Part shown: piece by piece, positions 2,681 through 18,246 of the stretch
How the letters are laid out: each line of letters opens with the position of its first letter
How positions within the stretch are numbered: the stretch's first letter is position 1
NCBI GenBank assembly: GCA_964613715.1
Contig: CAZTJK010000004.1
Span: forward strand, 3,834 to 67,833
DNA: 64,000 nucleotides
DNA from: an uncultured Candidatus Saccharibacteria bacterium
Lineage (GTDB): Bacteria > Patescibacteriota > Minisyncoccia > Phycocordibacterales > GWA1-40-21
Direction of reading: 5' to 3'
The notes under the pieces: generated by a model
Databases searched by the model: none
The model's input: only the letters and a program-made list of their open reading frames with translations
What the model was told of the DNA's origin: nothing
Position numbers and translations under genes: made by a program

Positions 2681-3267
2681 GTGATGAGATGCGTTTTGCG
2701 CATGATCTCTTCGTGAATCGCCTCAACCGATTGTTCACCGTTGATATCGAGCACGATGCAGTCCTTATTGGTGCGGAAAAACTGGATAGCCGGCACGACA
2801 TCCTTCTCGAACCAGTTCATGCGATGCTCGATAGCCTCCGTATTGTCATCGCCCCGAGCGCGGGAAAGCAAACGCATGGTCGCCGATTCCCGGGAAACAT
2901 CGATATGCAGGATCTTGTATTTGCTGATATTCAAAAAGCGCATCGTATTGGCAAGAAATACTGCCTCGACGAGCTTTCGCGGAGCGCCATCGAAAATAAG
3001 CTGTTCAGTGCCCGTGAAGCGACTGGCCAGATAATTGATCCAGGTGCCGACAACGATCGGGTCAGGCGCAAGCTCGCCGGCCGTCATCATGTTTTTGACG
3101 ATTTTCTGGATATACGAATCCCCTTTCGCGTATTCACGAAGCAATGCACCGGTCTCAATATGCAAATACTTCACCTGCGCCGCCTCGAACGCTTTTTTCA
3201 GGAGTTCTACCTGCGTCCCTTTGCCACAGCCGGACCTGCCGATAAAGACATAGGCGGATGGCTCCAT
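2677..3267 (-). CDS. adk: adenylate kinase
   Basis: P-loop GRSGCGKGTQ and NMP-binding/LID regions. I place the start at the ATG at 3267 (MEPSAYVFIG). The longer track ORF begins with a GTG inside the terminator hairpin at 3375 and has an odd hydrophobic N-terminus. Confidence 0.85.
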   Translation of the reverse strand: MEPSAYVFIGRSGCGKGTQVELLKKAFEAAQVKYLHIETGALLREYAKGDSYIQKIVKNMMTAGELAPDPIVVGTWINYLASRFTGTEQLIFDGAPRKLVEAVFLANTMRFLNISKYKILHIDVSRESATMRLLSRARGDDNTEAIEHRMNWFEKDVVPAIQFFRTNKDCIVLDINGEQSVEAIHEEIMRKTHLIT

Positions 3268-3316: not shown

Positions 3317-3344
3317 AGTATAGCAAAGCAGGCGAAAAAGCCAA
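3317..3344 (-). promoter_or_regulatory. sigma70-like promoter for adk-map (minus-strand TTGGCT, 16-nt spacer, TATACT)
   Basis: RC of plus 3339..3344 is TTGGCT and RC of 3317..3322 is TATACT. It lies immediately downstream of the secY terminator hairpin. Confidence 0.4.
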
Positions 3345-3350
3345 ATAAAA

Positions 3351-3375
3351 GTGGCGCGCCCGCTGGGCGCGCCAC
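3351..3375 (-). terminator. intrinsic-terminator-like hairpin between secY and adk
   Basis: GTGGCGCGCCC-gct-GGGCGCGCCAC: a perfect 11-bp GC stem with a 3-nt loop, followed on the minus strand by TTTTATTTGG. Confidence 0.55.
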
Positions 3376-3392
3376 TTTCGGATGAACGAGGA

Positions 3393-4664
3393 TTAATATT
3401 CCCGCATCGTGACCTGCGCCTCGATTTTCTTGATGAGATCAATGACGACGGAGACGACAATGAGAAGCGCGGTACCGCCAAGCGCGATCGAGGTAATACC
3501 TGAAAGCGATCGGACTACGAGCGGCAAGACAGCGACAATGCCGAGAAAGAGCGCGCCGACGAGCGTAATGCGGGTCAACACTTTGGCAAGATACTCGGAA
3601 GTCGCCTGGCCTGGGCGGACGCCGGGAATGAATGCGCCCGATTGCTGCAAGTTCTTCGCGATCTGATCGGGATCAAATGTAACGGCGGTATAGAAATACG
3701 TGAAGATGAAGACGAAGACGAAGTAGAGCGCCATATAGATCCACTGATTCGAGATGAAGTCATTCAGCGTCGTCGCAATGGACTTGAGAACCGGATTGGT
3801 CGCGACCTGGGCAACGAACTTGAAAATCATCTGCGGGAACAAGAGAATCGACATACCAAAGATTATCGGAATAACGCCTGACTGGTTCACGCGCAGCGGC
3901 AGATAGGTCGAGACACCGCCAGAGACCGTGCCGCCGCGTACCGTTTTGGCATAGGTGACCGGAATCGGCCGTTCTGCTTCAGAAACAAATACCACGCCAT
4001 AAATGACCGCGATTGCAATCACGAGAAAGAGCACATAGGTCGGGATCTGCGACACATCGAAAATGAGTCCGAACTGCTTGATATGCGTCGGCAAGTTTGC
4101 CACGATGCCGGCGAAAATGAGCATGGATGTGCCGTTACCGATACCGAATTCAGTCATAAGCTCTCCAAGCCACATCATCAAGAGCGAACCTGCGACAATG
4201 ATAATGATATTGACGATCATGGCCGTCAGGCCGAGATTCGAAAGCACGCCCGCCTTTGCAAGGATCGTAAGAAATGCAAAGCCCTGGATGCAAGCAATCG
4301 GCACCGTGATCAGGCGCGAAACCTGGTTGAATTTCCTGCGGCCGATCTCCCCTTCCTCCTGATACATGGCCTTGAGCTTCTTCGAAAGAAGCGTGAGCAC
4401 CTGCATGACGATAGACGCCGTGATATACGGACCGACGCCAAGCATCACGATCGAGAGCTTGCTCATGCCGCCGCCCGAGAAAATATTCAAAAAGCTGAAA
4501 AATTCGCTGCCAGAAAAGAATTCAGCGAGCTTTGCCGGATTGATGCCCGGGATCGGAATGACTGCAAGTACGCGGGAAATACAGAGTCCGAAGAGGACAA
4601 AGAGGATCCGACCCCGCAAAGTGCGGTCTTTGAATACTGTCGTTATTTTTTCCCAAAAGTTCAT
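3393..4664 (-). CDS. secY: preprotein translocase subunit SecY
   Basis: 423 aa, 10-TM profile, SecY signature regions. Immediately downstream of rplO. Confidence 0.92.
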   Translation of the reverse strand: MNFWEKITTVFKDRTLRGRILFVLFGLCISRVLAVIPIPGINPAKLAEFFSGSEFFSFLNIFSGGGMSKLSIVMLGVGPYITASIVMQVLTLLSKKLKAMYQEEGEIGRRKFNQVSRLITVPIACIQGFAFLTILAKAGVLSNLGLTAMIVNIIIIVAGSLLMMWLGELMTEFGIGNGTSMLIFAGIVANLPTHIKQFGLIFDVSQIPTYVLFLVIAIAVIYGVVFVSEAERPIPVTYAKTVRGGTVSGGVSTYLPLRVNQSGVIPIIFGMSILLFPQMIFKFVAQVATNPVLKSIATTLNDFISNQWIYMALYFVFVFIFTYFYTAVTFDPDQIAKNLQQSGAFIPGVRPGQATSEYLAKVLTRITLVGALFLGIVAVLPLVVRSLSGITSIALGGTALLIVVSVVIDLIKKIEAQVTMREY

Positions 4665-4668
4665 AGGG

Positions 4669-5100
4669 TTATTTCACCGTGCCTCCTGCCTTCTCTATCT
4701 TGGCTTTCGCTTCGGCCGATACGAGGCAACCCGTCACGACGAGCTTTTTCGAGAGATCGCCAGTCGCAAGGATCTTCACGATCGGATTTGTGCCGCCGAA
4801 AAGCTCGATAGCACCTTTCTCCACGAGTGTTTTCGGGCTGACGGTTGCGCCCGCCACAAAGAGTGAGTCAAGTGCCGCGATATTCACCGCAACCGGCTTT
4901 TCATTCTTGCTATTGAACGCGTAGCCGCGAAGCTTCGGCATACGCTTGATGATATCGCGCATTTCCGGGCGAGCTTTGTGTCCGGCGCGGGCAGTCTGGC
5001 CCTTGCCGCCGCGGCCCGAGGTCTTGCCGCGCTTGCCGCCGCGGCCAATGAGCGGATATTTCTTGTTCTTCGTCTTTCGCTTGAGTTCGTGTATTTTCAT
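4669..5100 (-). CDS. rplO: 50S ribosomal protein L15
   Basis: Gly/Arg-rich N-terminus (GRGGKRGKTSGRGGKGQTARAGHK) typical of L15. Confidence 0.92.
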   Translation of the reverse strand: MKIHELKRKTKNKKYPLIGRGGKRGKTSGRGGKGQTARAGHKARPEMRDIIKRMPKLRGYAFNSKNEKPVAVNIAALDSLFVAGATVSPKTLVEKGAIELFGGTNPIVKILATGDLSKKLVVTGCLVSAEAKAKIEKAGGTVK

Positions 5101-5111
5101 GGTCGTATGCG

Positions 5112-5750
5112 TTATTGCGCTGTCGCTTCCGTTTTCTCTGATGCCGGCTTTTCCGAAACTGCTGATTTCTTGTTGAATGCCGAGAGGGCAAGCAGGGTCG
5201 CGCGGGCGATATTGAGCTTGTTCTTGGATGGCGAGATGATCTTGCCGGTAATATCATGAATGCCTGCAAGCTCGATCACGTTCTGAAGAGCGCTGCCGGC
5301 GGATACACCCCTGCCCTTTGCCGGCATGAGGACGATGCGGCCGCTCGAGTATTTGGCGCTCACCTGATGCGGAATAGACATGGTCTTGGTCAGCTGCAAA
5401 TGCATCAGGTTCTTTTTGGCGCTGCGATATGCCTTGTCGATCGCTGCCGAAGTGTCATTGGCCTTTCCGGTGCCGACGCCGACAGCGCCTTTCTTATTGC
5501 CGATAACGACGGCGATGGAGAAATTCATGCGCTTGCCGCCCTTGGTCACACGGGTAACGCGGCGGATGGTAAGGATTTTCTGATCGAACTCCGGCTTGAC
5601 GCGCTCGCCGCGCGGGCCGCCGCCCCTGCGCGGATTTTTCATGCGATCATCCCGTCCTGAGCGCTTGCCAAACGGCGCATGCGCTTTCGGCGCCATGGCT
5701 GCTGCCGGTGCTGCTGTCGTATTCGTAGGTTGTGATGTGGTGGTGTCCAT
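5112..5750 (-). CDS. rpsE: 30S ribosomal protein S5 (extended N-terminus)
   Basis: The S5 core (ILTIRRVTRVTKGGKRMNFSIAVVIGNKKGAVGVGTGKAND) preceded by a low-complexity N-terminal extension. Its stop is 11 nt from the rplO start, so there is no room for an L30 gene. Confidence 0.9.
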   Translation of the reverse strand: MDTTTSQPTNTTAAPAAAMAPKAHAPFGKRSGRDDRMKNPRRGGGPRGERVKPEFDQKILTIRRVTRVTKGGKRMNFSIAVVIGNKKGAVGVGTGKANDTSAAIDKAYRSAKKNLMHLQLTKTMSIPHQVSAKYSSGRIVLMPAKGRGVSAGSALQNVIELAGIHDITGKIISPSKNKLNIARATLLALSAFNKKSAVSEKPASEKTEATAQ

Positions 5751-6664: not shown

Positions 6665-7057
6665 TTACCAGATGCGGAACATTTCCTCGCCGCCGACTTT
6701 CTGCTTCACGGCTTCCTTATCGATCAGGATGCCTTTCGGGGTCGAGAAAATAGTAGCGCCGAAACCGTTCTTGAACGGCTTGATATCGGCAGCAGCCTTG
6801 TAGATGCGGCGGGACGGCTTTGAGACGCGGGCGACATCAGTAACTTTCGGCATTTTGTCCGCGGTATATGCGAGGCCAAGTTCGAGCGTCTTGCCATCAT
6901 TCGTCTTCGATACAGACGTAAGAAATCCGGCACGCATCAGGGCGTGAGCGACCGCTTCTTTGAGCAGGGATGCCGGAACAGCCGCCGATGCCTTGCCGAC
7001 GCGGTTGGCATTCTTGATGCGGATAATGAGATCGCCGATTTTGTCAGTGACTACCAT
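6665..7057 (-). CDS. rpsH: 30S ribosomal protein S8
   Basis: 130 aa; [14 protein letters not shown]... is typical of S8. Confidence 0.9.
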
Positions 7058-7236
7058 GATGATTTCTTGATACCTGGAATTTTTCCGTCATTGGCAAATT
7101 CGCGGAAGCAGATTCTGCAAAGATCAAAATCCCGCATATAGCCGTGCTTGCGGCCGCAGCGGAAACAGCGTCTCACCACGCGTGAGGCGAATTTTGGCTT
7201 CCGTTTTGAGCGGTCAATGACTGATTTTTTTGCCAT
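7051..7236 (-). CDS. rpsN: 30S ribosomal protein S14 type Z (zinc-binding)
   Basis: [16 protein letters not shown]...[23 protein letters not shown] with four Zn-ligand Cys. The true start is the ATG at 7236; the track ORF begins at an upstream TTG. Confidence 0.88.
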
Positions 7237-7272
7237 GTCCAAATAAAAAAGCTCGAAAAAGCTTGTCAGAGC

Positions 7273-7301
7273 ATACTAGCAAGGACAGATAGCAAAGTCA
7301 A
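7273..7301 (-). promoter_or_regulatory. sigma70-like promoter (TTGACT, 17 nt, TAGTAT) upstream of rpsN
   Basis: The minus strand reads TTGACT (7301..7296), then 17 nt, then TAGTAT (7278..7273). A short hairpin AAGCT-TTTTCG-AGCTT followed by a U-tract lies in the leader (7253..7268). Confidence 0.45.
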
Positions 7302-7330
7302 TGGTGAATCCGCCTGCCTGGGCAAGAAAA

Positions 7331-7361
7331 AACCCGAATGGAACGGTCCATTCGGGTTTTT
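7331..7361 (-). terminator. intrinsic terminator after the membrane-protein gene
   Basis: AACCCGAATGG-aacggt-CCATTCGGGTT: a perfect 11-bp stem flanked by A-run and T-run, so it can act bidirectionally. It starts 3 nt after the stop of the 7364..7762 gene. Confidence 0.6.
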
Positions 7362-7363
7362 GG

Positions 7364-7762
7364 TCAGTGGCGAAAAAATGATACATAGCAGCGCACGGCA
7401 CCGGCAACACAGAGCCAGGTAGGCACAAGCCTCGCCACAATCGGCCACCATGCTTGCTTGACGGTCAATTGCACCGTATAGAGCGATGCGAGCATGAAGA
7501 AAGCCCATATCGGCAATGCTTTGGAATCGGCAACAATATGGCAGCCTACCGCTACCCCGATCCCGCTATTTATGCAAATGCCGATAAGCGGATCCCGGGA
7601 TGCTTCACCAGCGAAATACAGCGCGAGGATAACCGTGACCACTACAATACCCACGAGTATCGGCATGGTATCCTTCTGCGGTATCGCGGATAGGATGAAA
7701 ACAATAGTTACTACTAGACCCCAAAAAGCCCCTACTTTCGAACAAATATCAAGCTGCTGCAT
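7364..7762 (-). CDS. small polytopic membrane protein (132 aa, 4 predicted TM) inserted between rplE and rpsN
   Basis: ATG start with a strong SD (AGGGGAGGA, 6 nt upstream). Four hydrophobic helices. It has its own promoter and terminator. Confidence 0.6.
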   Translation of the reverse strand: MQQLDICSKVGAFWGLVVTIVFILSAIPQKDTMPILVGIVVVTVILALYFAGEASRDPLIGICINSGIGVAVGCHIVADSKALPIWAFFMLASLYTVQLTVKQAWWPIVARLVPTWLCVAGAVRCYVSFFRH

Positions 7763-7797
7763 GATCGTCCTCCCCTGTCAAAATAGCATCTGCAGTA

Positions 7798-7826
7798 TAT
7801 ATACAGGGAGCTGAATGCGGAGTCAA
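7798..7826 (-). promoter_or_regulatory. sigma70-like promoter (TTGACT, 17 nt, TATATA) for the membrane-protein cassette
   Basis: The minus strand reads TTGACT (RC of 7821..7826), a 17-nt spacer, then TATATA(TACT) (RC of 7798..7803), directly after the rplE terminator. Confidence 0.5.
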
Positions 7827-7831
7827 GAAAA

Positions 7832-7856
7832 ATCCCCGCGAGCGCGGGGATTTTTT
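7832..7856 (-). terminator. intrinsic terminator immediately after the rplE stop
   Basis: ATCCCCGC-gagc-GCGGGGAT: an 8-bp GC stem with a 4-nt loop. A-run and T-run on either side overlap the rplE stop codon. Confidence 0.55.
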
Positions 7857-8421
7857 ATTTTTTGCCTTTTTTGCCTTCGTCTTCCTTCTTGAATGGGAAG
7901 CCGAGATATTCGAGAAATGCGCGGGCTGATTTCTTATCCTTCGTGCTCATAACGATGGTCACACCCATGCCAAAGACATCCTTGAGCTCTTCGTCGGCAG
8001 ATTCTGGAAACACTGTGTTCTCCTTGATCGCGATGGTGAAGTTACCCATGCTGTCGATCGCATTGGCTGAAAGGCCGCGGAAGTCCTTGGTGCGTGGAAA
8101 AACGACTGCAACGAGCTTATTGAGGAAATCAAACATGTGTGGGCCGCGCAGCGTCACCTGATAGCCGACTGGATCACCCTGTCGCACCTTGAAGGTTGCC
8201 ACTGATTTCTTCGCGACGCGGAGGACCGGCTTCTGGCCGGTGATTTTCTTCAAGCGGTCTTCAACGATTTTCTGCTTGTTCTTGTCCTTGAACGAGCCGA
8301 CGCCGACATTGATCGACACCTTCTCTATTTTCGGAGACTGCATCTTGTTTGTGATGCCGAGCTTCTCATGCAAAGCAGCAAATGCCTTATTCTGTTTTTC
8401 TTTGAGTGATATCATGGTCAT
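7855..8421 (-). CDS. rplE: 50S ribosomal protein L5
   Basis: 188 aa with L5 core (ITGQKPVLRVAKKSVATFKVRQGDPVG...). Confidence 0.9.
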   Translation of the reverse strand: MTMISLKEKQNKAFAALHEKLGITNKMQSPKIEKVSINVGVGSFKDKNKQKIVEDRLKKITGQKPVLRVAKKSVATFKVRQGDPVGYQVTLRGPHMFDFLNKLVAVVFPRTKDFRGLSANAIDSMGNFTIAIKENTVFPESADEELKDVFGMGVTIVMSTKDKKSARAFLEYLGFPFKKEDEGKKGKK

Positions 8422-11053: not shown

Positions 11054-11395
11054 TTATTTCTTCGCTTCGGTTGCGGCTTTCGCCGTCTTTGCTGCTGCGA
11101 TTTCAGACTCCTTGGCTGCTGCATCGATATCCTTCTGCATCTTACCGCCATGGCGGACAAATTTTCTCGTATGGGAGAATTCACCCAAGCGGTGGCCGAC
11201 CATGTCTTCGGTCACCAGGACCTCGAGATGCGTCTTGCCATTGTGCACGCCGAAGACAAATCCAACCATTTCCGGAGCAATCTGGCTGCGGCGTGACCAT
11301 GTCTTAATGACACCGGTCTCGATCGGCTTTTTCCCTTCTATCTTTTTTAGAAGTTTTTCGTCGATATATGGTCCCTTTTTGACTGATCGTGCCAT
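11054..11395 (-). CDS. rpsS: 30S ribosomal protein S19 (C-terminal Ala/Lys-rich extension)
   Basis: [20 protein letters not shown]...HNGKTH...GHRLGEF. Confidence 0.92.
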
Positions 11396-11421
11396 AGAGT
11401 CGTTGAGAAATGCAAAATAAT

Positions 11422-11437
11422 AAGCTCACGTGAGCTT
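11422..11437. promoter_or_regulatory. perfect 16-bp palindrome AAGCTCACGTGAGCTT upstream of rpsS
   Basis: Located 27-42 nt upstream of the rpsS ATG at the 5' boundary of the ribosomal cluster. It could be an operator, or a 6-bp stem with an ACGT loop followed on the minus strand by ATTATTTTG. Confidence 0.35.
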
Positions 11438-11489
11438 GAGCCCCCATAGTAGCAAAATGGACGGGAATGTCAACACGGGAAACAGGCCG

Positions 11490-11657: not shown

Positions 11658-13124
11658 TTATAAATGGTGGAAGAGACCGAGGATGCCGCCGAAAACTCGA
11701 GTGAAAAAGCCGGTGCTTGAGCTTGCAGGTACGCCAGTCAAGACGCTCGCTGATTGAGGTATATCGGTAGATGCCGGTTCTTCACGAGACGTGTCGATAG
11801 GAAGCTCGGCAGGAGCAGTATGGGATTCCGCCGATTGGGTTCTCCGATCAGCGGCACGCGCACGAATGAGCGCGAGCACGTGCTCTGCCTCTGCAACGCT
11901 CATGCCGAGATCCGCTTCAATATTTGAAGATATCGCAGAAGGCTGCGCTATGTTCTCGTTGCCGCGGATTGATACGACATTTGTAGCGGAAGGATTAGCG
12001 AGGAATATATCCTGGAATCTGAGAGGCCAGGCCATATCTTCCCGGGAAAGGGTGATGGTACCTTCGGGAGCAAGGATGGTGTTACGGGGAAATGAAAACT
12101 GACCCGCATCTGATTGCAATTTCCAGCCGCCGAGATTTATTTCGCTGCTACCTCGATTCGTTACCTCGATCGCAGCATCAGCTGAAATGGCAAGCGACAG
12201 GTTTGGCACGAGCACCTTGACGGCAGTGCGGGCAGTCGCCGACATATCTCCGCAATGCGCGCTCAAAATCACCGCGTATATGCCCGGATGCTTGTAGGTA
12301 TGAGATACTTCCCCGCTGTTTGCGCTGAAGCCGTCACCGAATGACCAGGATACATCGCATGAACTCCAAGGAAAGCTCGCAAGAGCCTTATGCTTTGCGG
12401 AAAAAAGAACGGGTACGCCGACATAGGAGAGCCGCTCGCGGCCGGCTGAAATGGAAAGTGAATTCGCGCCGTCATCATAGGCGCTGATATCCTCGGGACT
12501 ATCATGGGCGGAAAGATAGACATTGTGGATGATGACTGTCGTTGTCGCTGCTGCTGTTTCAGTAGTACTTGCTGTTTGGGAGGAAGGCGTGGCATCAGCA
12601 GCGGTTGTGGTCGCGGATGAGGAAGATACCGGCGCGGATACATTCGCCTTGCCCGGCGTCGGTAAAGCAGCGCCCCAACCCTCATTTATATATTGAAGCG
12701 AGTTTCCATCCCCTCCCGCGCCGATAGATGGATCATACGTGATACTTGCAAGCGTATTGAGACTGCCATCCCGGATTTCAAGCGGCTCACCCGTATTTGA
12801 AAGCGAAAAGCTGCTATCGAACAAGAGCCCCGCATAATCCGGATTGTCTGCCGTAAACTTTGCGGGCGTATCGGCGATCACCGCATATTGATATGGGTCA
12901 AGCGTCGCGGATGCCCCGGCAGGAGTGATGCTGTGATTCGTACTTGCTTCGAACAGCTTCAATTTTGAGACATCGATGCTTGCCGCATCAGGATTATAGA
13001 TCTCGATCCACTCCCTGCCAGTATCGGTACCGGGAAGATCGTACATGATTTCCGTTATCTGCACTGCGGCAAAAGACAGCATCGGCAGGAGAAACAGAGA
13101 AAGAGCGACAAGAAATTTCTTCAT
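11658..13124 (-). CDS. secreted lamin-tail-domain (LTD) protein with PKD-like segment
   Basis: Signal peptide, then LTD signature (ITEIMYDLPGTDTGREWIEIYN...SNTGEPLEIRDG) and a second LTD-like block (GGWKLQSDAGQFSFPRNTILAPEGTITL). A Thr/Ala-rich linker and a hydrophobic C-terminus are also present. Confidence 0.65.
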   Translation of the reverse strand: MKKFLVALSLFLLPMLSFAAVQITEIMYDLPGTDTGREWIEIYNPDAASIDVSKLKLFEASTNHSITPAGASATLDPYQYAVIADTPAKFTADNPDYAGLLFDSSFSLSNTGEPLEIRDGSLNTLASITYDPSIGAGGDGNSLQYINEGWGAALPTPGKANVSAPVSSSSATTTAADATPSSQTASTTETAAATTTVIIHNVYLSAHDSPEDISAYDDGANSLSISAGRERLSYVGVPVLFSAKHKALASFPWSSCDVSWSFGDGFSANSGEVSHTYKHPGIYAVILSAHCGDMSATARTAVKVLVPNLSLAISADAAIEVTNRGSSEINLGGWKLQSDAGQFSFPRNTILAPEGTITLSREDMAWPLRFQDIFLANPSATNVVSIRGNENIAQPSAISSNIEADLGMSVAEAEHVLALIRARAADRRTQSAESHTAPAELPIDTSREEPASTDIPQSASVLTGVPASSSTGFFTRVFGGILGLFHHL

Positions 13125-13181
13125 ACTACCGCACAGTGTAGTACAAAATATCAGACAGGGCGAGAAAATCCTGTGGATAAG

Positions 13182-13778
13182 TTAGTTGAGCGTCAGATAA
13201 AAATCAAATGCGCGCGGCTTTGCGCCGTTTGGCTGCTCGACTTCGGTAAACGTGATCTTGATCGGCGTGCCCGAGTAAATGCCGACGGTCGTCGTCCAGG
13301 CATTCAGTGTCACTGAGAATTTCGAAGATGAAGCGACAGAAGCGACAAGGCCGTTATTCGTGACTGCGACTGGAACGCCAGATGGCTGCCAGCCAGCGGA
13401 TTTCGAATAGAAATAGAGCTGTGCGGTGCCGGCCCGGGAGGCGGTCTTCTCCCATAAGCAGCCGAGGGCGTCGGCTTTCGTATTGTCGATCGTACCGGAT
13501 ACGATGAGCGGGAATGTCACCCGGGCATTTGCGGCAGGGCTCGTTACTCTGAAGCCGCAGGTGCCGTAGCTTGTCGTTACTGGTTTTGGCAAAACAGTAC
13601 CACTCGTTGATTGCGATGAATGCGAAGAGGCTGGTACATTTGTCGTTGAAGAGGTATTCGTCGTGCTATTCCCCGGCATCTCTGCGCTCGGTCCCTTTGC
13701 AAGAAGCGCATAGAGCCCCCCTCCAAGGATGACAAGGATGATGATTCCGAGCGTTATTTTATTTTTCATGGATTCCAT
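13182..13778 (-). CDS. membrane-anchored secreted hypothetical protein
   Basis: N-terminal TM helix (ITLGIIILVILGGGLYALL), a Ser/Thr-rich linker, then a ~120-aa beta-rich domain. Confidence 0.5.
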   Translation of the reverse strand: MESMKNKITLGIIILVILGGGLYALLAKGPSAEMPGNSTTNTSSTTNVPASSHSSQSTSGTVLPKPVTTSYGTCGFRVTSPAANARVTFPLIVSGTIDNTKADALGCLWEKTASRAGTAQLYFYSKSAGWQPSGVPVAVTNNGLVASVASSSKFSVTLNAWTTTVGIYSGTPIKITFTEVEQPNGAKPRAFDFYLTLN

Positions 13779-13790
13779 ATGCGTAATTTG

Positions 13791-14801
13791 TTATTCCCCG
13801 TAAACCTCTATTAACTTCGCCTTGGTGCGTGGTCCTACCTGACCGTATCCGGCATCTCCCTGTTTGGCAATGCCGTATTTTTCCTGGAAGCGCCCGACTG
13901 CTTTCCTCGTGAGGGATCCGAAATAGCTGGTGATCAGGCCTTCGGGATACATGCTCGCATCTTTTGAAAGAACAAGCTGTATCAATCGTACATCGGCGCC
14001 GGATGCGCCGAGCATAAGCTGGCGCTTCACAGTGTCTGCAATGCCAGAAACTTTAATGACAATGATCGGCGGCTCGGTAGTGACAGGTGTTGACGGTGGT
14101 GTCGATGATGCGATAGGCGTTGTCGTAGCAGCAGTCGTTTGGGTTGTCGAAGCTGTGGTTGTAGCTGTTGCGGCGGGCGCGCCATTTGAATAGTTGTTAT
14201 GGGTACGATCGACATCGATAGCGCGAGAGAGAGCTGTGCTGTTGCCTGCAGCATCGGTTGCCGTATACGTCAGATAATAGCGGTCGACATGGGTTGGGTT
14301 CAGATTGCCTGACACCACGACGGAAATCGGGGTGCCATTTTCATCGAATGCAGTGGCTCCTGGATCGATACATGGAAAATAAATGCTGCAGCTCATCGGA
14401 TTGTAGCCGACAAGCGACAAGGACGGCATACGGGTCATCAGTACCGCTGATGTGATGACCGGAGCGCTTATGCTGTTTGTTCCCGATTGGGAGTAGACGG
14501 TAATACTAAGGGTACCATCAACAAATCCGGCCCGGATGGCGTTGATCGCGAGATCGAAGCCGCTGCCGTAAAGCGTGGATGAGGTCGTAGCCGCATGTCC
14601 GGCCGCATCAGCAATCGCGAGCGTTACGGTTGCACCAGCATCTGCAGTGCCGACAACATGAATCGCAAGTGCTTCAGTCGCATTCACATAGCTATCCCCT
14701 GCTACTGAAGCAATCGTTGGGCTTGCCGTCATACCGGCATATGCAACTGGCACAAAGACAAACGCGGAGAAAATGCTGATAATTGAGTAGTATTTTTTCA
14801 T
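13791..14801 (-). CDS. secreted protein with Ig-like domain and C-terminal PG_binding_1 domain
   Basis: Signal peptide, Ig-like repeat, Thr-rich linker, and a C-terminal DVRLIQLVLSKDASMYPEGLITSYFGSLTRKAVGRFQEKYGI...GPRTKAKL segment typical of the putative peptidoglycan-binding domain. Confidence 0.6.
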   Translation of the reverse strand: MKKYYSIISIFSAFVFVPVAYAGMTASPTIASVAGDSYVNATEALAIHVVGTADAGATVTLAIADAAGHAATTSSTLYGSGFDLAINAIRAGFVDGTLSITVYSQSGTNSISAPVITSAVLMTRMPSLSLVGYNPMSCSIYFPCIDPGATAFDENGTPISVVVSGNLNPTHVDRYYLTYTATDAAGNSTALSRAIDVDRTHNNYSNGAPAATATTTASTTQTTAATTTPIASSTPPSTPVTTEPPIIVIKVSGIADTVKRQLMLGASGADVRLIQLVLSKDASMYPEGLITSYFGSLTRKAVGRFQEKYGIAKQGDAGYGQVGPRTKAKLIEVYGE

Positions 14802-14866
14802 AGATAATCACTTAGTACTATTACCTAGTTATTATACTACAAATGGGACAGCAAATAAAAAGAAAT

Positions 14867-14895
14867 GAAAAAACCGCCATATATTGGCGGTTTTT
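14867..14895 (-). terminator. intrinsic terminator (first of a tandem pair) after the giant surface-protein gene
   Basis: ACCGCCA-tatat-TGGCGGT stem-loop flanked by A6 and T5. Confidence 0.5.
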
Positions 14896-14901
14896 CCATA
14901 C

Positions 14902-14931
14902 AAAAAGCCGGCCCTTTCGGGCCGGCTTTTT
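14902..14931 (-). terminator. intrinsic terminator (second of the tandem pair)
   Basis: GCCGGCCC-tttc-GGGCCGGC: an 8-bp GC stem flanked by A5 and T5. Confidence 0.55.
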
Positions 14932-14973
14932 GAACCATTCTCAAGCCGTGCGGCTCAAGAATCACAAGTGGTC

Positions 14974-17900
14974 TTAGTTCGTCAAGTTCTGAGAATCCGT
15001 TGGGATATTCTTGATCAACACGTCATTGTTCCAATCCGGCGAAGTCGTCGAATGTGGGCTGAATGATTCATCAGACCAGACAAACGATGCGTTTGTACCA
15101 GCACCTGATGAGGTGGTTGACTGAATATGACCAGCAGTACCCGCAGCAATCTTTGTCGTGACAGCATCGTTTGTTGCGATGGTGCCGCCGACAACCGCCT
15201 TCAACTTGTAGGTCTTAGACGTGCCTGCTGCGATTTCCTCTGGGTTCGTCGGGGTGAATGTGATCACGCCTGACGTAACACCTGACTGTGAAAGGTCGCC
15301 GGTTGATGATGCGAATGAACCTGGGATTGCCACGTCATTTACATCAGTGAGCGTCCAGCCAGTCTGAAGGGTGCTTGCCGTCGCCAAGGTGTTTGCAGAA
15401 GCCTTGGTGATGGTGAATGCAACCTTTGACCACTGAACTGCGCCAGCTGCATCAGCTGCAACCTGGATCTTGTCGAGGGTCTTCGTACCAGCCTGCAAGA
15501 GAGTATCCGTCAAAGCAACGTTCGTGATTGTCGGAACTGACTTGAAGACATACTGGACGTTACCCGTCGAACCAACGTTACCCACGAGGGTCTGAACGCC
15601 GGTTGATGACTGCTTTCTGTAACCAGTGAGCGTGTACAAGACATTGGAGCTTGACGTTGCGCCACCTGGAGTACCGATTGAAGCAAGATTCAAGTATGCA
15701 TCAACGATGACACCTGAAGTGTTGTTCGCAGGAACAACGATGTTCAAACCAGTCGTGGTTGCCATTGCATTGGTACCATCTGAGGTATCAATTGGCGTAC
15801 CAGAACCGTTGAGCACGGTTGAACCGATCTTGTAAACAACGCTTGCGACGTTACCAGCTGAAGCAAATGGGATGAAGCCCATGAGCTGATCAACCGTGTA
15901 GGTGTCGCCCGTAGCAACAAACTTGAATGAGCCAGCCTTGACTGTGTTGTTTGCAACGACAGTCGTGCTTGCTGCCAAGTTGTATGCTGCCAAGTTCAAC
16001 GAGCCTACTGTGATGCTAAACGTCTGACCAGTCGTGTAGGTTGAGCCTGAAGGGACCGTAACAGTCTGATTTGACTGTGAGGTCTGACCTGCAATCTGCA
16101 ACTTCGTGACGATCACGTCTGCACCGCCGAGTCCTGAACCGAGAGTACCATACACTGAGACGTCAATTGTCTGACCAGCAGGCAATGTGTAGTTCACCGC
16201 GTATGAGTTGTCTCCGGAAACAATCGTCGACTTGTTGCTTGAAGTCTTGTTGCCATACACAACGTAGACATCCGTGATGGATGAGGTAGCAGTCGTAGAC
16301 GCACCTGATCCGAGGAAGTTAACGGTGATGGTGTTCAAGTTCAAGTTTTCAGTCGTACCAGCAGTAAGCGTGTAGTCGCCGAGCTTGACCGCAGTCTGCG
16401 GAGCAATCATTGACTGGTTTGCATATGCCGTGTACTTCGAAAGGGACAATGAGCCCTGAGAAACCGTCAACTGGTTTGCAGTGACAGCACCCGTGCTGAT
16501 ATTGCCGCCTGACTTCGTGAGGTCTGCGTTTGCAGAACCTGCAACGAGAGAAACAGTAACCGTGTTGCCATTTACGAGCTGAGCTCCGCTTGACGTGTAG
16601 ATATCGCTGCGTACTTCAAGAGTAACTGGCGAACCTGGAACGACAGTGAAGTTCAAGCTGTTGTACTGCGTTGCGGTCGTTGAACCGATATCCGCAGTGC
16701 TGCCAACCTGGGAACCATTGACGAACAATGCGCCATTGCGCAATGGGCCAACGTTTGAGCCAGCATATGACACTTTCAAGTTTTCAATCTTGATAGGTTC
16801 ACCTGCTGCCTTGATCTGGAAGCGAGCGAGAGCAACACCTGATGCAGACAACGTAACGTTACCTGAAGGTGAATCGGTCGTCTTCGTGATGGTCAAGGTA
16901 CCAGAGTTGACTGACTGAACGCCCGTCGTGAATGGGAATGTGTAGCCCGAGTTCGTCGTGGCCAACACGTTCACGTTGAGCTGTGAGTCAACAAGGTTGA
17001 GATCTGAAGCCTGTCTCAACTGGAACGAGAAGTTCTTCGTCGAGCCGCCGATGATGTCACCAACGAGTTTGATCGTGTGTGAACCAGTCGTGAGCTTCAA
17101 TGGGTTTCCTGACAAATCAAAGGTCAAGTAATTGTTGACATCATATGCGCTGAGCGCTGAGCCAACCTGATTACCGTCGATGAAGAGGCGGAAATTACCC
17201 AAGTCTCCCGTTGCAACAGAACCAACCTGGCGAAGAGCGATTGCCTTCATCCAGACATCGTTCGTGCTCACGCTTGCCGTGCCGTACCACATGGTGTAAT
17301 CCGTCTGTGGGTCGACTGACGTCGTTGAGACTGACGATGATGAGATGATCACTGATGCGAGCGTCGCTGACGAAACCGTCTGCGAAGCTGCTGAGATCGG
17401 GTACACTGCCGTCACCGGAACATTCGACGTAACGCCCGTGAGGGAGACTACGAAGATCTGACCGTTGTAGGTCGTGCCTGACGTGATGTCAGCGCGAACG
17501 GCGATCGTCATCGATGAGCCTGCAGGAATCGTGAAGAGACCTGAAGGAGCATTGAAGGTGATCTTGCCGGTCGAAACTGATGCTGAGTCAGTCAATCTCG
17601 TCACACCGCTGTAGAGGTAGACGTTTGACAATGCTGCATCGTTTGAAACACCGCCTCTCTGGAGAGTGACGTTCGTCACAACTGCCGGAGCTGCTGAGGT
17701 GTTCGTAAACGTGTATTCAGCGAGGTCAGCGATTGACTGTCCTGCAACGACTGCGCCGGAAACCGGTGAAGTTGCTGCGAGAGATACCTTGAGGTCAGTG
17801 CCTGAAGGGACCACCGTTGAACCGGTACCTGATGACATCGAGCCTGAGCTCAACATCGAGCGGGTCTTCGGACCAACATAACCAGCTGCTGGCGTGATGC

Positions 17901-18246
17901 CGTTTGCAAGCTGATATTTGATGACGGCTGCTTTCGTCAATGAACCGAAGTAACCGGTCGCTGGCGAAATGCCGAGCATGGTCTGCAATGCGGTGACATC
18001 TGCACCCTTGCTACCGACGGTGAGGTCGACAGAGAAGGTGTGGCCTGACGTCGTCGATGAAGATGACGTGAGTCCGAGGGATGCCTTGACTGCAGCTGCT
18101 TTGCTTGCATCAACGAGACCAAGCGCAACGAGCATGTCGATCTCGTATGCCGTCTTCTGCTTGAAAAAAAAAACTGCAACCAATGAGAAGACGACGTCCA
18201 AGCCGGCGACCAGTCCAAACATTGATGAAAAACTATTTCTTTTCAT
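14974..18246 (-). CDS. giant Ser/Thr-rich cell-surface protein (1090 aa) with N-terminal PG_binding_1 domain; 5' end contains adapter-derived sequence
   Basis: After residues 1-36 it has a PG_binding_1 block (GADVTALQTML...GYFGSLTKAAVIKYQLANGITPAAGYVGPKTRSML) and about 900 aa of repeated beta-sandwich-like Ser/Thr/Gly/Val-rich segments. Codons 26-36 (FFFKQKTAYEI) are encoded by an Illumina P7 adapter plus poly-A, so the true N-terminus and start are uncertain. Confidence 0.65.
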   Translation of the reverse strand: MKRNSFSSMFGLVAGLDVVFSLVAVFFFKQKTAYEIDMLVALGLVDASKAAAVKASLGLTSSSSTTSGHTFSVDLTVGSKGADVTALQTMLGISPATGYFGSLTKAAVIKYQLANGITPAAGYVGPKTRSMLSSGSMSSGTGSTVVPSGTDLKVSLAATSPVSGAVVAGQSIADLAEYTFTNTSAAPAVVTNVTLQRGGVSNDAALSNVYLYSGVTRLTDSASVSTGKITFNAPSGLFTIPAGSSMTIAVRADITSGTTYNGQIFVVSLTGVTSNVPVTAVYPISAASQTVSSATLASVIISSSSVSTTSVDPQTDYTMWYGTASVSTNDVWMKAIALRQVGSVATGDLGNFRLFIDGNQVGSALSAYDVNNYLTFDLSGNPLKLTTGSHTIKLVGDIIGGSTKNFSFQLRQASDLNLVDSQLNVNVLATTNSGYTFPFTTGVQSVNSGTLTITKTTDSPSGNVTLSASGVALARFQIKAAGEPIKIENLKVSYAGSNVGPLRNGALFVNGSQVGSTADIGSTTATQYNSLNFTVVPGSPVTLEVRSDIYTSSGAQLVNGNTVTVSLVAGSANADLTKSGGNISTGAVTANQLTVSQGSLSLSKYTAYANQSMIAPQTAVKLGDYTLTAGTTENLNLNTITVNFLGSGASTTATSSITDVYVVYGNKTSSNKSTIVSGDNSYAVNYTLPAGQTIDVSVYGTLGSGLGGADVIVTKLQIAGQTSQSNQTVTVPSGSTYTTGQTFSITVGSLNLAAYNLAASTTVVANNTVKAGSFKFVATGDTYTVDQLMGFIPFASAGNVASVVYKIGSTVLNGSGTPIDTSDGTNAMATTTGLNIVVPANNTSGVIVDAYLNLASIGTPGGATSSSNVLYTLTGYRKQSSTGVQTLVGNVGSTGNVQYVFKSVPTITNVALTDTLLQAGTKTLDKIQVAADAAGAVQWSKVAFTITKASANTLATASTLQTGWTLTDVNDVAIPGSFASSTGDLSQSGVTSGVITFTPTNPEEIAAGTSKTYKLKAVVGGTIATNDAVTTKIAAGTAGHIQSTTSSGAGTNASFVWSDESFSPHSTTSPDWNNDVLIKNIPTDSQNLTN
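18140..18173. other. Illumina P7 adapter (ATCTCGTATGCCGTCTTCTGCTTG) followed by A10: sequencing/assembly artifact
   Basis: Exact 24-nt match to the reverse complement of the P7 flow-cell primer CAAGCAGAAGACGGCATACGAGAT on the plus strand, followed by ten A's. This is the signature of adapter read-through. Confidence 0.9.

Follow-up and report, generated by a model that had tools for sequence, protein, structure and literature searches.

A gene order frozen by co-transcription is classically illustrated by the ribosomal-protein cluster, which also supplies markers for phylogenies of the candidate phyla radiation (CPR) and for checks on the contiguity of metagenome-assembled genomes. In model bacteria, rplE and rpsN are normally adjacent and co-transcribed within the spc operon. 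The leader of the Escherichia coli S10 operon is long, with several hairpins, and L4, itself encoded in the operon, together with NusA brings about termination at a hairpin and U-run 5′ of rpsJ; stem-loops that stabilize the 5′ end of a message are represented by the 5′ hairpin of E. coli ompA and the leader of Bacillus subtilis aprE. Insertions into translation-gene clusters are known in Gammaproteobacteria and Bacilli, and of the four described in detail, tusDCB, bfd-bfr and ilv-leu lie between operons and nrdHEF within the rpoBC operon, each being presented as a single ancestral event in one lineage (PMC8046335). The closest concept to the site described below is the core-gene-flanked chromosomal hotspot of accessory-gene integration and turnover (Oliveira, Touchon, Cury & Rocha 2017; PMC5635113). 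The window analysed here is a 64,000-nt stretch (positions 3,834–67,833, forward strand, of contig CAZTJK010000004.1, assembly GCA_964613715.1) from an uncultured Candidatus Saccharibacteria bacterium, and its element of interest is the 618-bp spacer between rplE and rpsN, which holds a gene for a 132-aa protein (ORF132) together with two predicted terminators and two predicted promoters.

The closest relatives of the L5 protein of the window are found in metagenome-assembled Paceibacteria/Parcubacteria of the CPR, at 72–79% identity. The cluster retains the order rpsS-rplV-rpsC-rplP-rpmC-rpsQ-rplN-rplX-rplE, then ORF132, then rpsN-rpsH-rplF-rplR-rpsE-rplO-secY and adk-map, with rplE as the last gene of a predicted transcription unit that starts at rpsS, and rpsN as the first gene of a predicted unit that runs to secY. 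The segment between them is probably a self-contained single-gene accessory cassette lodged in a lineage-wide break of the ribosomal-protein cluster. Its features and their two flanking genes, in the direction of transcription, are as follows.

7855–8421, minus strand: rplE (L5), Pfam Ribosomal_L5 (E = 1e-17) and Ribosomal_L5_C (E = 3e-27), stop at 7855
7827–7856, minus strand: predicted intrinsic terminator after rplE, perfect 13-nt arms (7855–7843 and 7840–7828), then TTTTTC
7798–7826, minus strand: promoter-like site of ORF132, TTGACT-17-TATATA, read from the sequence
7364–7775, minus strand: Shine–Dalgarno (SD) sequence GGGGAGG (7775–7769) and ORF132 (7762–7364), 132 aa, from the list of open reading frames (ORFs)
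7328–7361, minus strand: predicted intrinsic terminator of ORF132, perfect 15-nt arms (7361–7347 and 7342–7328)
7273–7301, minus strand: predicted promoter of rpsN, TTGACT-17-(TGC)TAGTAT with an extended −10 (upstream TG), from the consensus scan and conservation
7264–7249, with a U-tract at 7248–7243, minus strand: rpsN leader hairpin AAGCUU-UUUC-GAGCUU, 6 bp, starting 8 nt past the −10, with no SD before ATG 7236
7051–7236, minus strand: rpsN (S14, 61 aa, zinc-ribbon type), Pfam Ribosomal_S14 (E = 3e-22), CxxC...CxxC in the translation, start at ATG 7236 and not TTG 7242

An earlier reading of the window, made from its letters alone (hereafter the sequence-only reading), had described an autonomous membrane-protein cassette intruding into a continuous operon, and the minus strand does contain every signal that it placed in the rplE–rpsN spacer, at or close to the stated position. 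The hairpin and U-tract that it saw after rplE fold at −18.9 kcal/mol with z = −4.8 against shuffled sequence (0 of 200 shuffles as good), and an A-tract ahead of the stem and a T-tract behind it give the element a bidirectional form. The perfect hairpin claimed after ORF132 is borne out at −21.7 kcal/mol and z = −6.0. Both elements have the GC-rich stem, the run of five or six T residues and the location 3′ of a stop codon that are expected of an intrinsic terminator. The segment as a whole indeed reads as a self-contained series of promoter, SD, ORF and strong terminator. The promoter assigned to rpsN satisfies the sigma-70 consensus (a TTGACA-like −35 and a TATAAT-like −10, 16–18 bp apart, the −10 having A at its second and T at its sixth position) and is kept in 50–54 of ∼72 relatives, in agreement with the claim that rpsN has a promoter of its own. 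The promoter proposed for ORF132 fares less well: its sequence is present and TTGACT recurs right after the rplE terminator in L084 and L007, the two other loci that carry ORF132, but the −10 ends in A and not in the usual T, leaving the site without a call in the consensus scan, and this box varies among the carriers. Promoter-like matches as a class occur no more often than in shuffled sequence (25 against an expected 17.9 ± 3.9 in 20 kb); the support for the rpsN promoter and for the leader hairpin comes mainly from their conservation in relatives, and that for the first promoter partly so. We infer from these features that the signals act as terminators and promoters in vivo.

What the sequence-only reading took for an intrusion into a continuous operon is, in this lineage, a break that is present whatever the site holds. 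A comparison set was formed by the 80 loci most similar in L5, all from metagenome-assembled genomes, in which the complete or near-complete relatives sampled measure 0.6–0.7 Mb. Among the 18 closest relatives, 16–17 have a terminator 3′ of rplE, with or without cargo in the gap and also where the gap measures only 99–166 bp, and the promoter and hairpin module precedes rpsN in 54 of 72; a pattern search recovers TTGAC(T/A)-17-(TG)CTAnnAT 5′ of rpsN in 50 of 71 loci. The canonical spc arrangement, in which rplE and rpsN adjoin with no terminator or promoter between them, is absent from this locus, and the break is clade-wide.

The break coincides with the sole varying junction of the cluster. 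Among 12 consecutive junctions from S3 to L15, each measured in 49–81 related loci, L5|S14 in 72 related Paceibacteria spans 320 bp at the median and up to 3,609 bp, with gaps above 250 bp in 39/72, above 500 bp in 31/72 and above 1 kb in 15/72, these counts being lower bounds (in nine more loci rpsN is not seen 3′ of rplE). Medians at the other 11 junctions lie between −12 and 28 bp, and the longest of their gaps is 479 bp. Unrelated genes occupy the L5|S14 gap in about half of the genomes, and a tally of gap ORFs of at least 80 aa gives 49 ORFs from 32 genomes, grouped in 43 clusters of which 38 have a single member; the largest cluster is the ORF132 family, with three members. The Pfam matches of this cargo include toxin–antitoxin pairs (RHH with YafQ), an EamA transporter with GrpB on the opposite strand, IS200-like Y1 and IS30-like transposases, and Lcl_C, PG_binding_1, a DUF5684 membrane protein, HD_3, NUDIX, DKNYY and a PBECR1 nuclease. 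Exchange of the content is captured in one pair of genomes: the flanks of L019 and L015 are 92% identical over 1.5 kb, and L015 carries an additional 1,040-bp cassette of promoter, ORF and terminator that begins at the base right after the T-tract of the rplE terminator. To judge from this alignment, the difference is one of recent turnover.

The same two core genes in 72 loci, the many families between them and the turnover in close relatives make the gap a hotspot in the sense of PMC5635113. As in the hotspots described there, the slot lies between universal core genes, receives many unrelated families, turns over rapidly and sometimes holds insertion sequences or toxin–antitoxin genes; unlike them, it is located inside the ribosomal-protein supercluster of very small CPR genomes, and its cargo is usually one or a few small genes with their own promoter and terminator, with no integrase or tRNA target. 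It resembles the insertions of PMC8046335 in that few unrelated genes enter while the overall order of the translation cluster stays intact, and differs from them in that the site falls within what is the spc operon of model bacteria and in that its content differs between genomes. Our search of the literature returned nothing on the spc operon of Patescibacteria, and the hotspot is apparently undescribed, the ORF132 cassette being an ordinary accessory gene within it.

Several observations concern the gap in other loci. In L022 an S-adenosylmethionine riboswitch (RF00162, 54.7 bits) lies inside the gap (L022:4660-4770), 5′ of a 168-aa ORF with no Pfam match. An element GAAATAGTGACGGGGTCAATGAAATATAGTC is shared just 5′ of the rpsN promoter by L015:5700-5780, L018:6240-6320 and L019:4670-4745 (approximate positions), loci of differing cargo, and may represent a scar or a site of recombination. 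Of the 80 loci, at least four (contigs L008, L021, L034 and L042) end within ∼150–300 bp after rplE, and six (L010, L032, L036, L049, L065 and L075) extend from 1.2 to more than 4 kb past rplE without reaching rpsN; both fit assembly breaks or large cargo at the hotspot.

On the downstream side of the slot, transcription of rpsN appears to restart at a module that is not confined to this gene. In the loci recovered by the pattern search, a hairpin of 5–7 bp stands exactly 8 nt past the −10 and is followed by a U-tract and by the ATG 10–25 nt on, with no SD. Taken by itself, the hairpin of the window is not significant (−4.4 kcal/mol, z = −0.44). A covariance model of the module, trained on 17 sequences and run over 689 kb at E ≤ 1, returns 102 matches, 93 of which lie at the heads of rpsN or rpsS or in the rplE–rpsN gap and only 9 elsewhere. 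A match is found within 200 nt 5′ of rpsN in 54/72 loci (45 within 14 nt of the ATG, 9 with an extra leader of 69–123 nt) and 5′ of rpsS in 37/68 loci. Searched with filters off, the 64-kb window contains two matches only, that of rpsN and the following one at the head of the upstream unit, with the hairpin AAGCUC-ACGU-GAGCUU.

11412–11473, minus strand: second module of promoter, 5′ hairpin and U-tract, 5′ of rpsS (11054–11395); covariance model R1, 31.2 bits, E = 1e-5

Across the 102 matches, 97.4% of cells are paired and all six pairs (6/6) show changes on both sides, with 57 double-change cells against 5.3 ± 3.4 in shuffles (0/500 as high) and far lower values for slid partners. The alignment is fitted to the structure of the covariance model and is hence biased to the modelled pairs, a bias that the slid-partner control answers in part; a plain MAFFT alignment of 50 leaders was set aside since variable loop lengths put the hairpins out of register. 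Because G-U cells (59) far outnumber unpaired cells (14), the pattern of substitution favours an RNA structure rather than a DNA palindrome, and this wobble asymmetry makes a DNA operator the less likely reading. A Zur box, suggested by the zinc-ribbon S14, was rejected, as the module also heads rpsS and the G-U wobbles indicate RNA. In having a conserved, covarying structure and a consistent place upstream of ribosomal-protein operons, the module shows the structural feature of an autoregulatory ribosomal leader. The whole window gives no Rfam match at the gathering threshold, and around the locus at E ≤ 5 there are only sub-threshold matches driven by the terminator hairpin; a catalogue of ribosomal leaders contains no S14 or S19 leader (PMC7247131).

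The function that we favour for the leader hairpin, somewhat tentatively, is that of a 5′-terminal stabilizer followed by a U-rich, SD-independent initiation region, because it starts at a fixed point, the predicted +1 to +3, forms a weak stem and serves two operon heads. Like the ompA and aprE elements, it is a short stem-loop a few nucleotides from the 5′ end (here a predicted one) of a message expressed at a high level, with a single-stranded leader rich in A and U behind it; unlike them, it has a conserved AGCU core common to two operon heads, which goes beyond a purely structural need. This core is among the features that speak for a second reading, in which the hairpin and U-tract would autoregulate the rpsN and rpsS units, as a factor-dependent attenuator or as a binding site for a ribosomal protein. 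The sequence-only reading had raised attenuation for a hairpin at 7253–7268, and the hairpin is real, conserved and covarying, although ∼4 nt away from there. A stem followed by a U-run just 5′ of the first ribosomal-protein gene is terminator-like and recalls the S10 leader, the compensatory changes reach all six pairs, the module is specific to two ribosomal unit heads, its G-U pattern points to RNA rather than to a DNA operator, and in some relatives the same position bears additional, longer structured leaders. However, the stems reach only −4 to −8 kcal/mol, compared with −9 to −33 kcal/mol for true terminators in these genomes, the fixed start 8 nt past the −10 is the classic position of a protective stem-loop, 6 bp are too small for convincing mimicry of an rRNA site, and the element matches no Rfam family. 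The S10 leader furthermore differs in kind from this single 5–7-bp stem at the very 5′ end, which heads both rpsN and rpsS, and as rplD (L4) is in neither the rpsS–rplE nor the rpsN–secY unit (the rest of the window was not searched for it), the E. coli mechanism cannot apply as such and the likeness is one of resemblance only. Attenuation is accordingly not favoured, given the weak hairpin, its place at the predicted 5′ end and its presence before rpsS, and we rate the regulatory reading as possible but rather unlikely. Somewhat less likely still would be a combined proposal in which the rplE|rpsN gap is a clade-wide, actively turning-over slot, kept because Paceibacteria re-cut the cluster into short units, the rpsS and rpsN units are headed by AAGCUY-loop-RAGCUU and a U-tract as a new coordinating leader working by attenuation or protein binding, and the longer leaders of relatives are elaborations of it.

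Other leaders were seen 5′ of rpsN in the related loci. In more distant Paceibacteria, one class has the form RTTGGAAGC, a variable hairpin, AGCTAACCAAY and a U-tract, with a few compensatory pairs. A second consists of a hairpin of ∼80 nt with 7 compensatory pairs among only 3 sequences, and a third of the promoter–hairpin module followed by two more hairpins; neither is in Rfam, and both are candidate ribosomal leaders.

L022:5732-5824, L030:5285-5377, L058:8061-8153, L071:4603-4695 and L077:7057-7149: RTTGGAAGC class, no Rfam match
L023:4585-4707, L044:5636-5758 and L070:6000-6122; L039:3599-3721, L054:3155-3277, L059:5077-5199 and L064:4926-5048: the two further classes

The occupant of the slot in the window, ORF132, begins at ATG 7762, six nucleotides 3′ of the SD GGGGAGG. 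The sequence-only reading counted four transmembrane helices, whereas hydropathy and an AlphaFold2 model from a three-sequence alignment both give five, the model being of low confidence (predicted local distance difference test, pLDDT, 60.6). Searches for a known family or fold returned nothing: the best E-values against Pfam are 0.12 and 0.16, below the cut-offs, NCBIfam gives no match, the best PHROGs hit is sub-threshold (E = 0.17), and Foldseek of this low-confidence model against the PDB reaches at best E = 0.42 with a template modelling score below 0.4, at the level of chance helical bundles. A word-index search of 5.8 billion proteins recovers ORF132 itself only, from three identical short Logan contigs. 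Exhaustive phmmer against 1.84 billion protein representatives yields one relative, P0002 (130 aa, E = 4e-5), and a third member, P0003 (149 aa), is a tblastn match in locus L007 that among the representatives is recovered only by profile search; the profile of the three-member alignment finds no further relatives. These three sequences, which make up the family, are 22–29% identical and share a pattern of hydrophobic segments and a C-terminal K..R..P.W motif. All three occupy the rplE–rpsN slot on the same strand, and their signals follow in one order; the SD region (conserved as TTTGA(A/C)AG(G/A)GGA) is homologous at the DNA level in all carriers and the terminator in two. Same-slot homologues at this identity, beside flanking L5 and S14 proteins of 78–79% and 90–93% identity in the two other carriers, indicate a real but fast-evolving gene, in accord with the earlier claim of a gene with a strong SD.

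That three genomes retain the exact position, orientation and signal architecture despite such divergence could also suggest that ORF132 is tied to its neighbours, for instance as a membrane partner of the ribosome or the SecY translocon, with its position selected for co-expression: it has a strong SD, the operon 5′ of it is highly expressed and has a terminator that might leak, and secY belongs to the downstream unit. On the other hand, ORF132 is enclosed by two of the strongest terminators of the region, it evolves far faster than the genes beside it, and its G+C content at third codon positions (GC3) is 55%, against ∼65% for the ribosomal genes. It is moreover missing from most close relatives (L004 with a 136-bp gap, L009, L011, L012 and L017; gaps of 99–166 bp), and unrelated cargo fills the same slot in other genomes. 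Absence from close relatives had been named by the sequence-only reading as a finding that would count against it, and this is half borne out, ORF132 being absent from most of them and kept in two. We consider a link to the neighbours improbable, and infer that ORF132 is an accessory factor of the envelope or membrane without a ribosomal role.

It is likewise improbable that the cassette was acquired recently, as a mobile or horizontally transferred element (a miniature insertion, for example) that targeted the terminator region. Transposases of the IS200-like and IS30-like types and toxin–antitoxin modules do occur in the slot of other genomes, a 1,040-bp cassette distinguishes the 92%-identical pair, and the window has a 13-nt imperfect direct repeat, GGG(T/A)TTTTTCTTG on the minus strand, at 7323–7335 and 7824–7836, 501 bp apart, at the 3′ ends of both terminators. 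This repeat may be a trace of the origin of the cassette, but it is largely what any two terminators share. The cassette of the window has no transposase, integrase or terminal inverted repeats, and its composition is native, with a GC content of 51.1% (51.6% in the window) and a GC3 comparable with the 52–60% of other genes. Searches of phage and plasmid collections (tblastn) and of JGI metagenome contigs (family profile) give no ORF132 match, the only relatives being the two among 1.84 billion representatives. In a rough neighbour-joining tree of L24, L5 and S14, the three carriers are nearest to one another, at the base of the close clade; this grouping and the deep divergence of their cassettes accord with an old insertion that was inherited vertically.

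That the spacer is non-coding regulatory DNA with an accidental open frame can hardly be maintained: the lack of any family, fold or annotation match, the low AlphaFold confidence and the set of only three sequences would permit it, but the frame stays open over 130–149 codons at 22–29% identity, the hydrophobic pattern and the C-terminal motif are conserved, the phmmer match has E = 4e-5 against 1.84 billion proteins, the conserved SD region lies at the right distance from the start, and a terminator directly follows the stop codon.

The single-gene accessory cassette in a lineage-wide break remains the explanation that we prefer, and its proposed course is as follows. Within this Paceibacteria clade (Parcubacteria, CPR), a transcript that begins at rpsS would end after rplE at a strong intrinsic terminator, and a conserved strong promoter 5′ of rpsN would start a new one, predicted to open with a small hairpin, likewise conserved, and a U-rich leader that lacks an SD. 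Between terminator and promoter, the DNA would be transcriptionally insulated, such that insertions leave the expression of ribosomal proteins undisturbed, and this insulation may be the reason why the slot tolerates cargo. Unrelated genes would be gained and lost there, the occupants typically bringing their own promoter and terminator. In the window the occupant would be an old, fast-evolving and lineage-restricted polytopic membrane protein, of ∼130–150 aa in its three genomes and with five predicted helices, whose expression would draw on a promoter of its own that looks weak, on a strong SD and possibly on read-through of the rplE terminator as well. The observation made by the sequence-only reading is confirmed on these grounds, and its interpretation is supported in part.

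Several points weigh against this explanation. The −10 box of ORF132 is atypical and poorly conserved (TATATA/TATAAA in L084, TAAAAA in L007), and because of this ORF132 may depend on read-through of the rplE terminator. The evidence that the terminators and promoters function as such consists of sequence and conservation, and the hotspot was sampled in the loci closest in L5. The retention of one gene at one spot in three genomes at 22–29% identity could mean that position matters for its function, and the structural model is of low confidence.

The remainder of the locus offers further departures from the model arrangement. Paceibacteria would have re-punctuated the ribosomal cluster into shorter units, a suggestion supported by the secY–adk spacer and by the position of rplB. 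The former (3317–3379, minus strand) contains a strong hairpin of 15 pairs with a T-tract (3379–3347) and then TTGGCT-16-TATACT (3344–3317), a predicted third terminator–promoter punctuation of the cluster; the start of adk is probably an ATG near 3267 rather than GTG 3375. As for the latter, a motif search of the 64-kb window for rplB (L2) found none, and the region 5′ of rpsS lacks rplB and the remainder of the S10 operon and contains large ORFs of secreted or surface type (488, 198, 336 and 1,090 aa) instead (11658–18246, minus strand). L2 adjoins rpsS in 29 more distant relatives, and none is seen within ∼900 nt in the closest clade. Between rpsE and rplO there is no rpmD (L30) (4669–5750, minus strand), and S5 has a low-complexity extension of ∼50 aa at its N-terminus.

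For the biology of these bacteria, the locus indicates that the ribosomal-protein cluster can be re-cut into independently transcribed units while its gene order is retained. ORF132 is itself of limited interest pending a function, and the rplE|rpsN junction is a defined place in which to seek lineage-specific accessory genes (membrane proteins, toxin–antitoxin pairs and nucleases) in very small genomes; the hotspot may also explain contigs that end just after rplE. We know of nothing on the expression or regulation of ribosomal operons in these bacteria, for which the shared promoter–hairpin module provides a concrete candidate.

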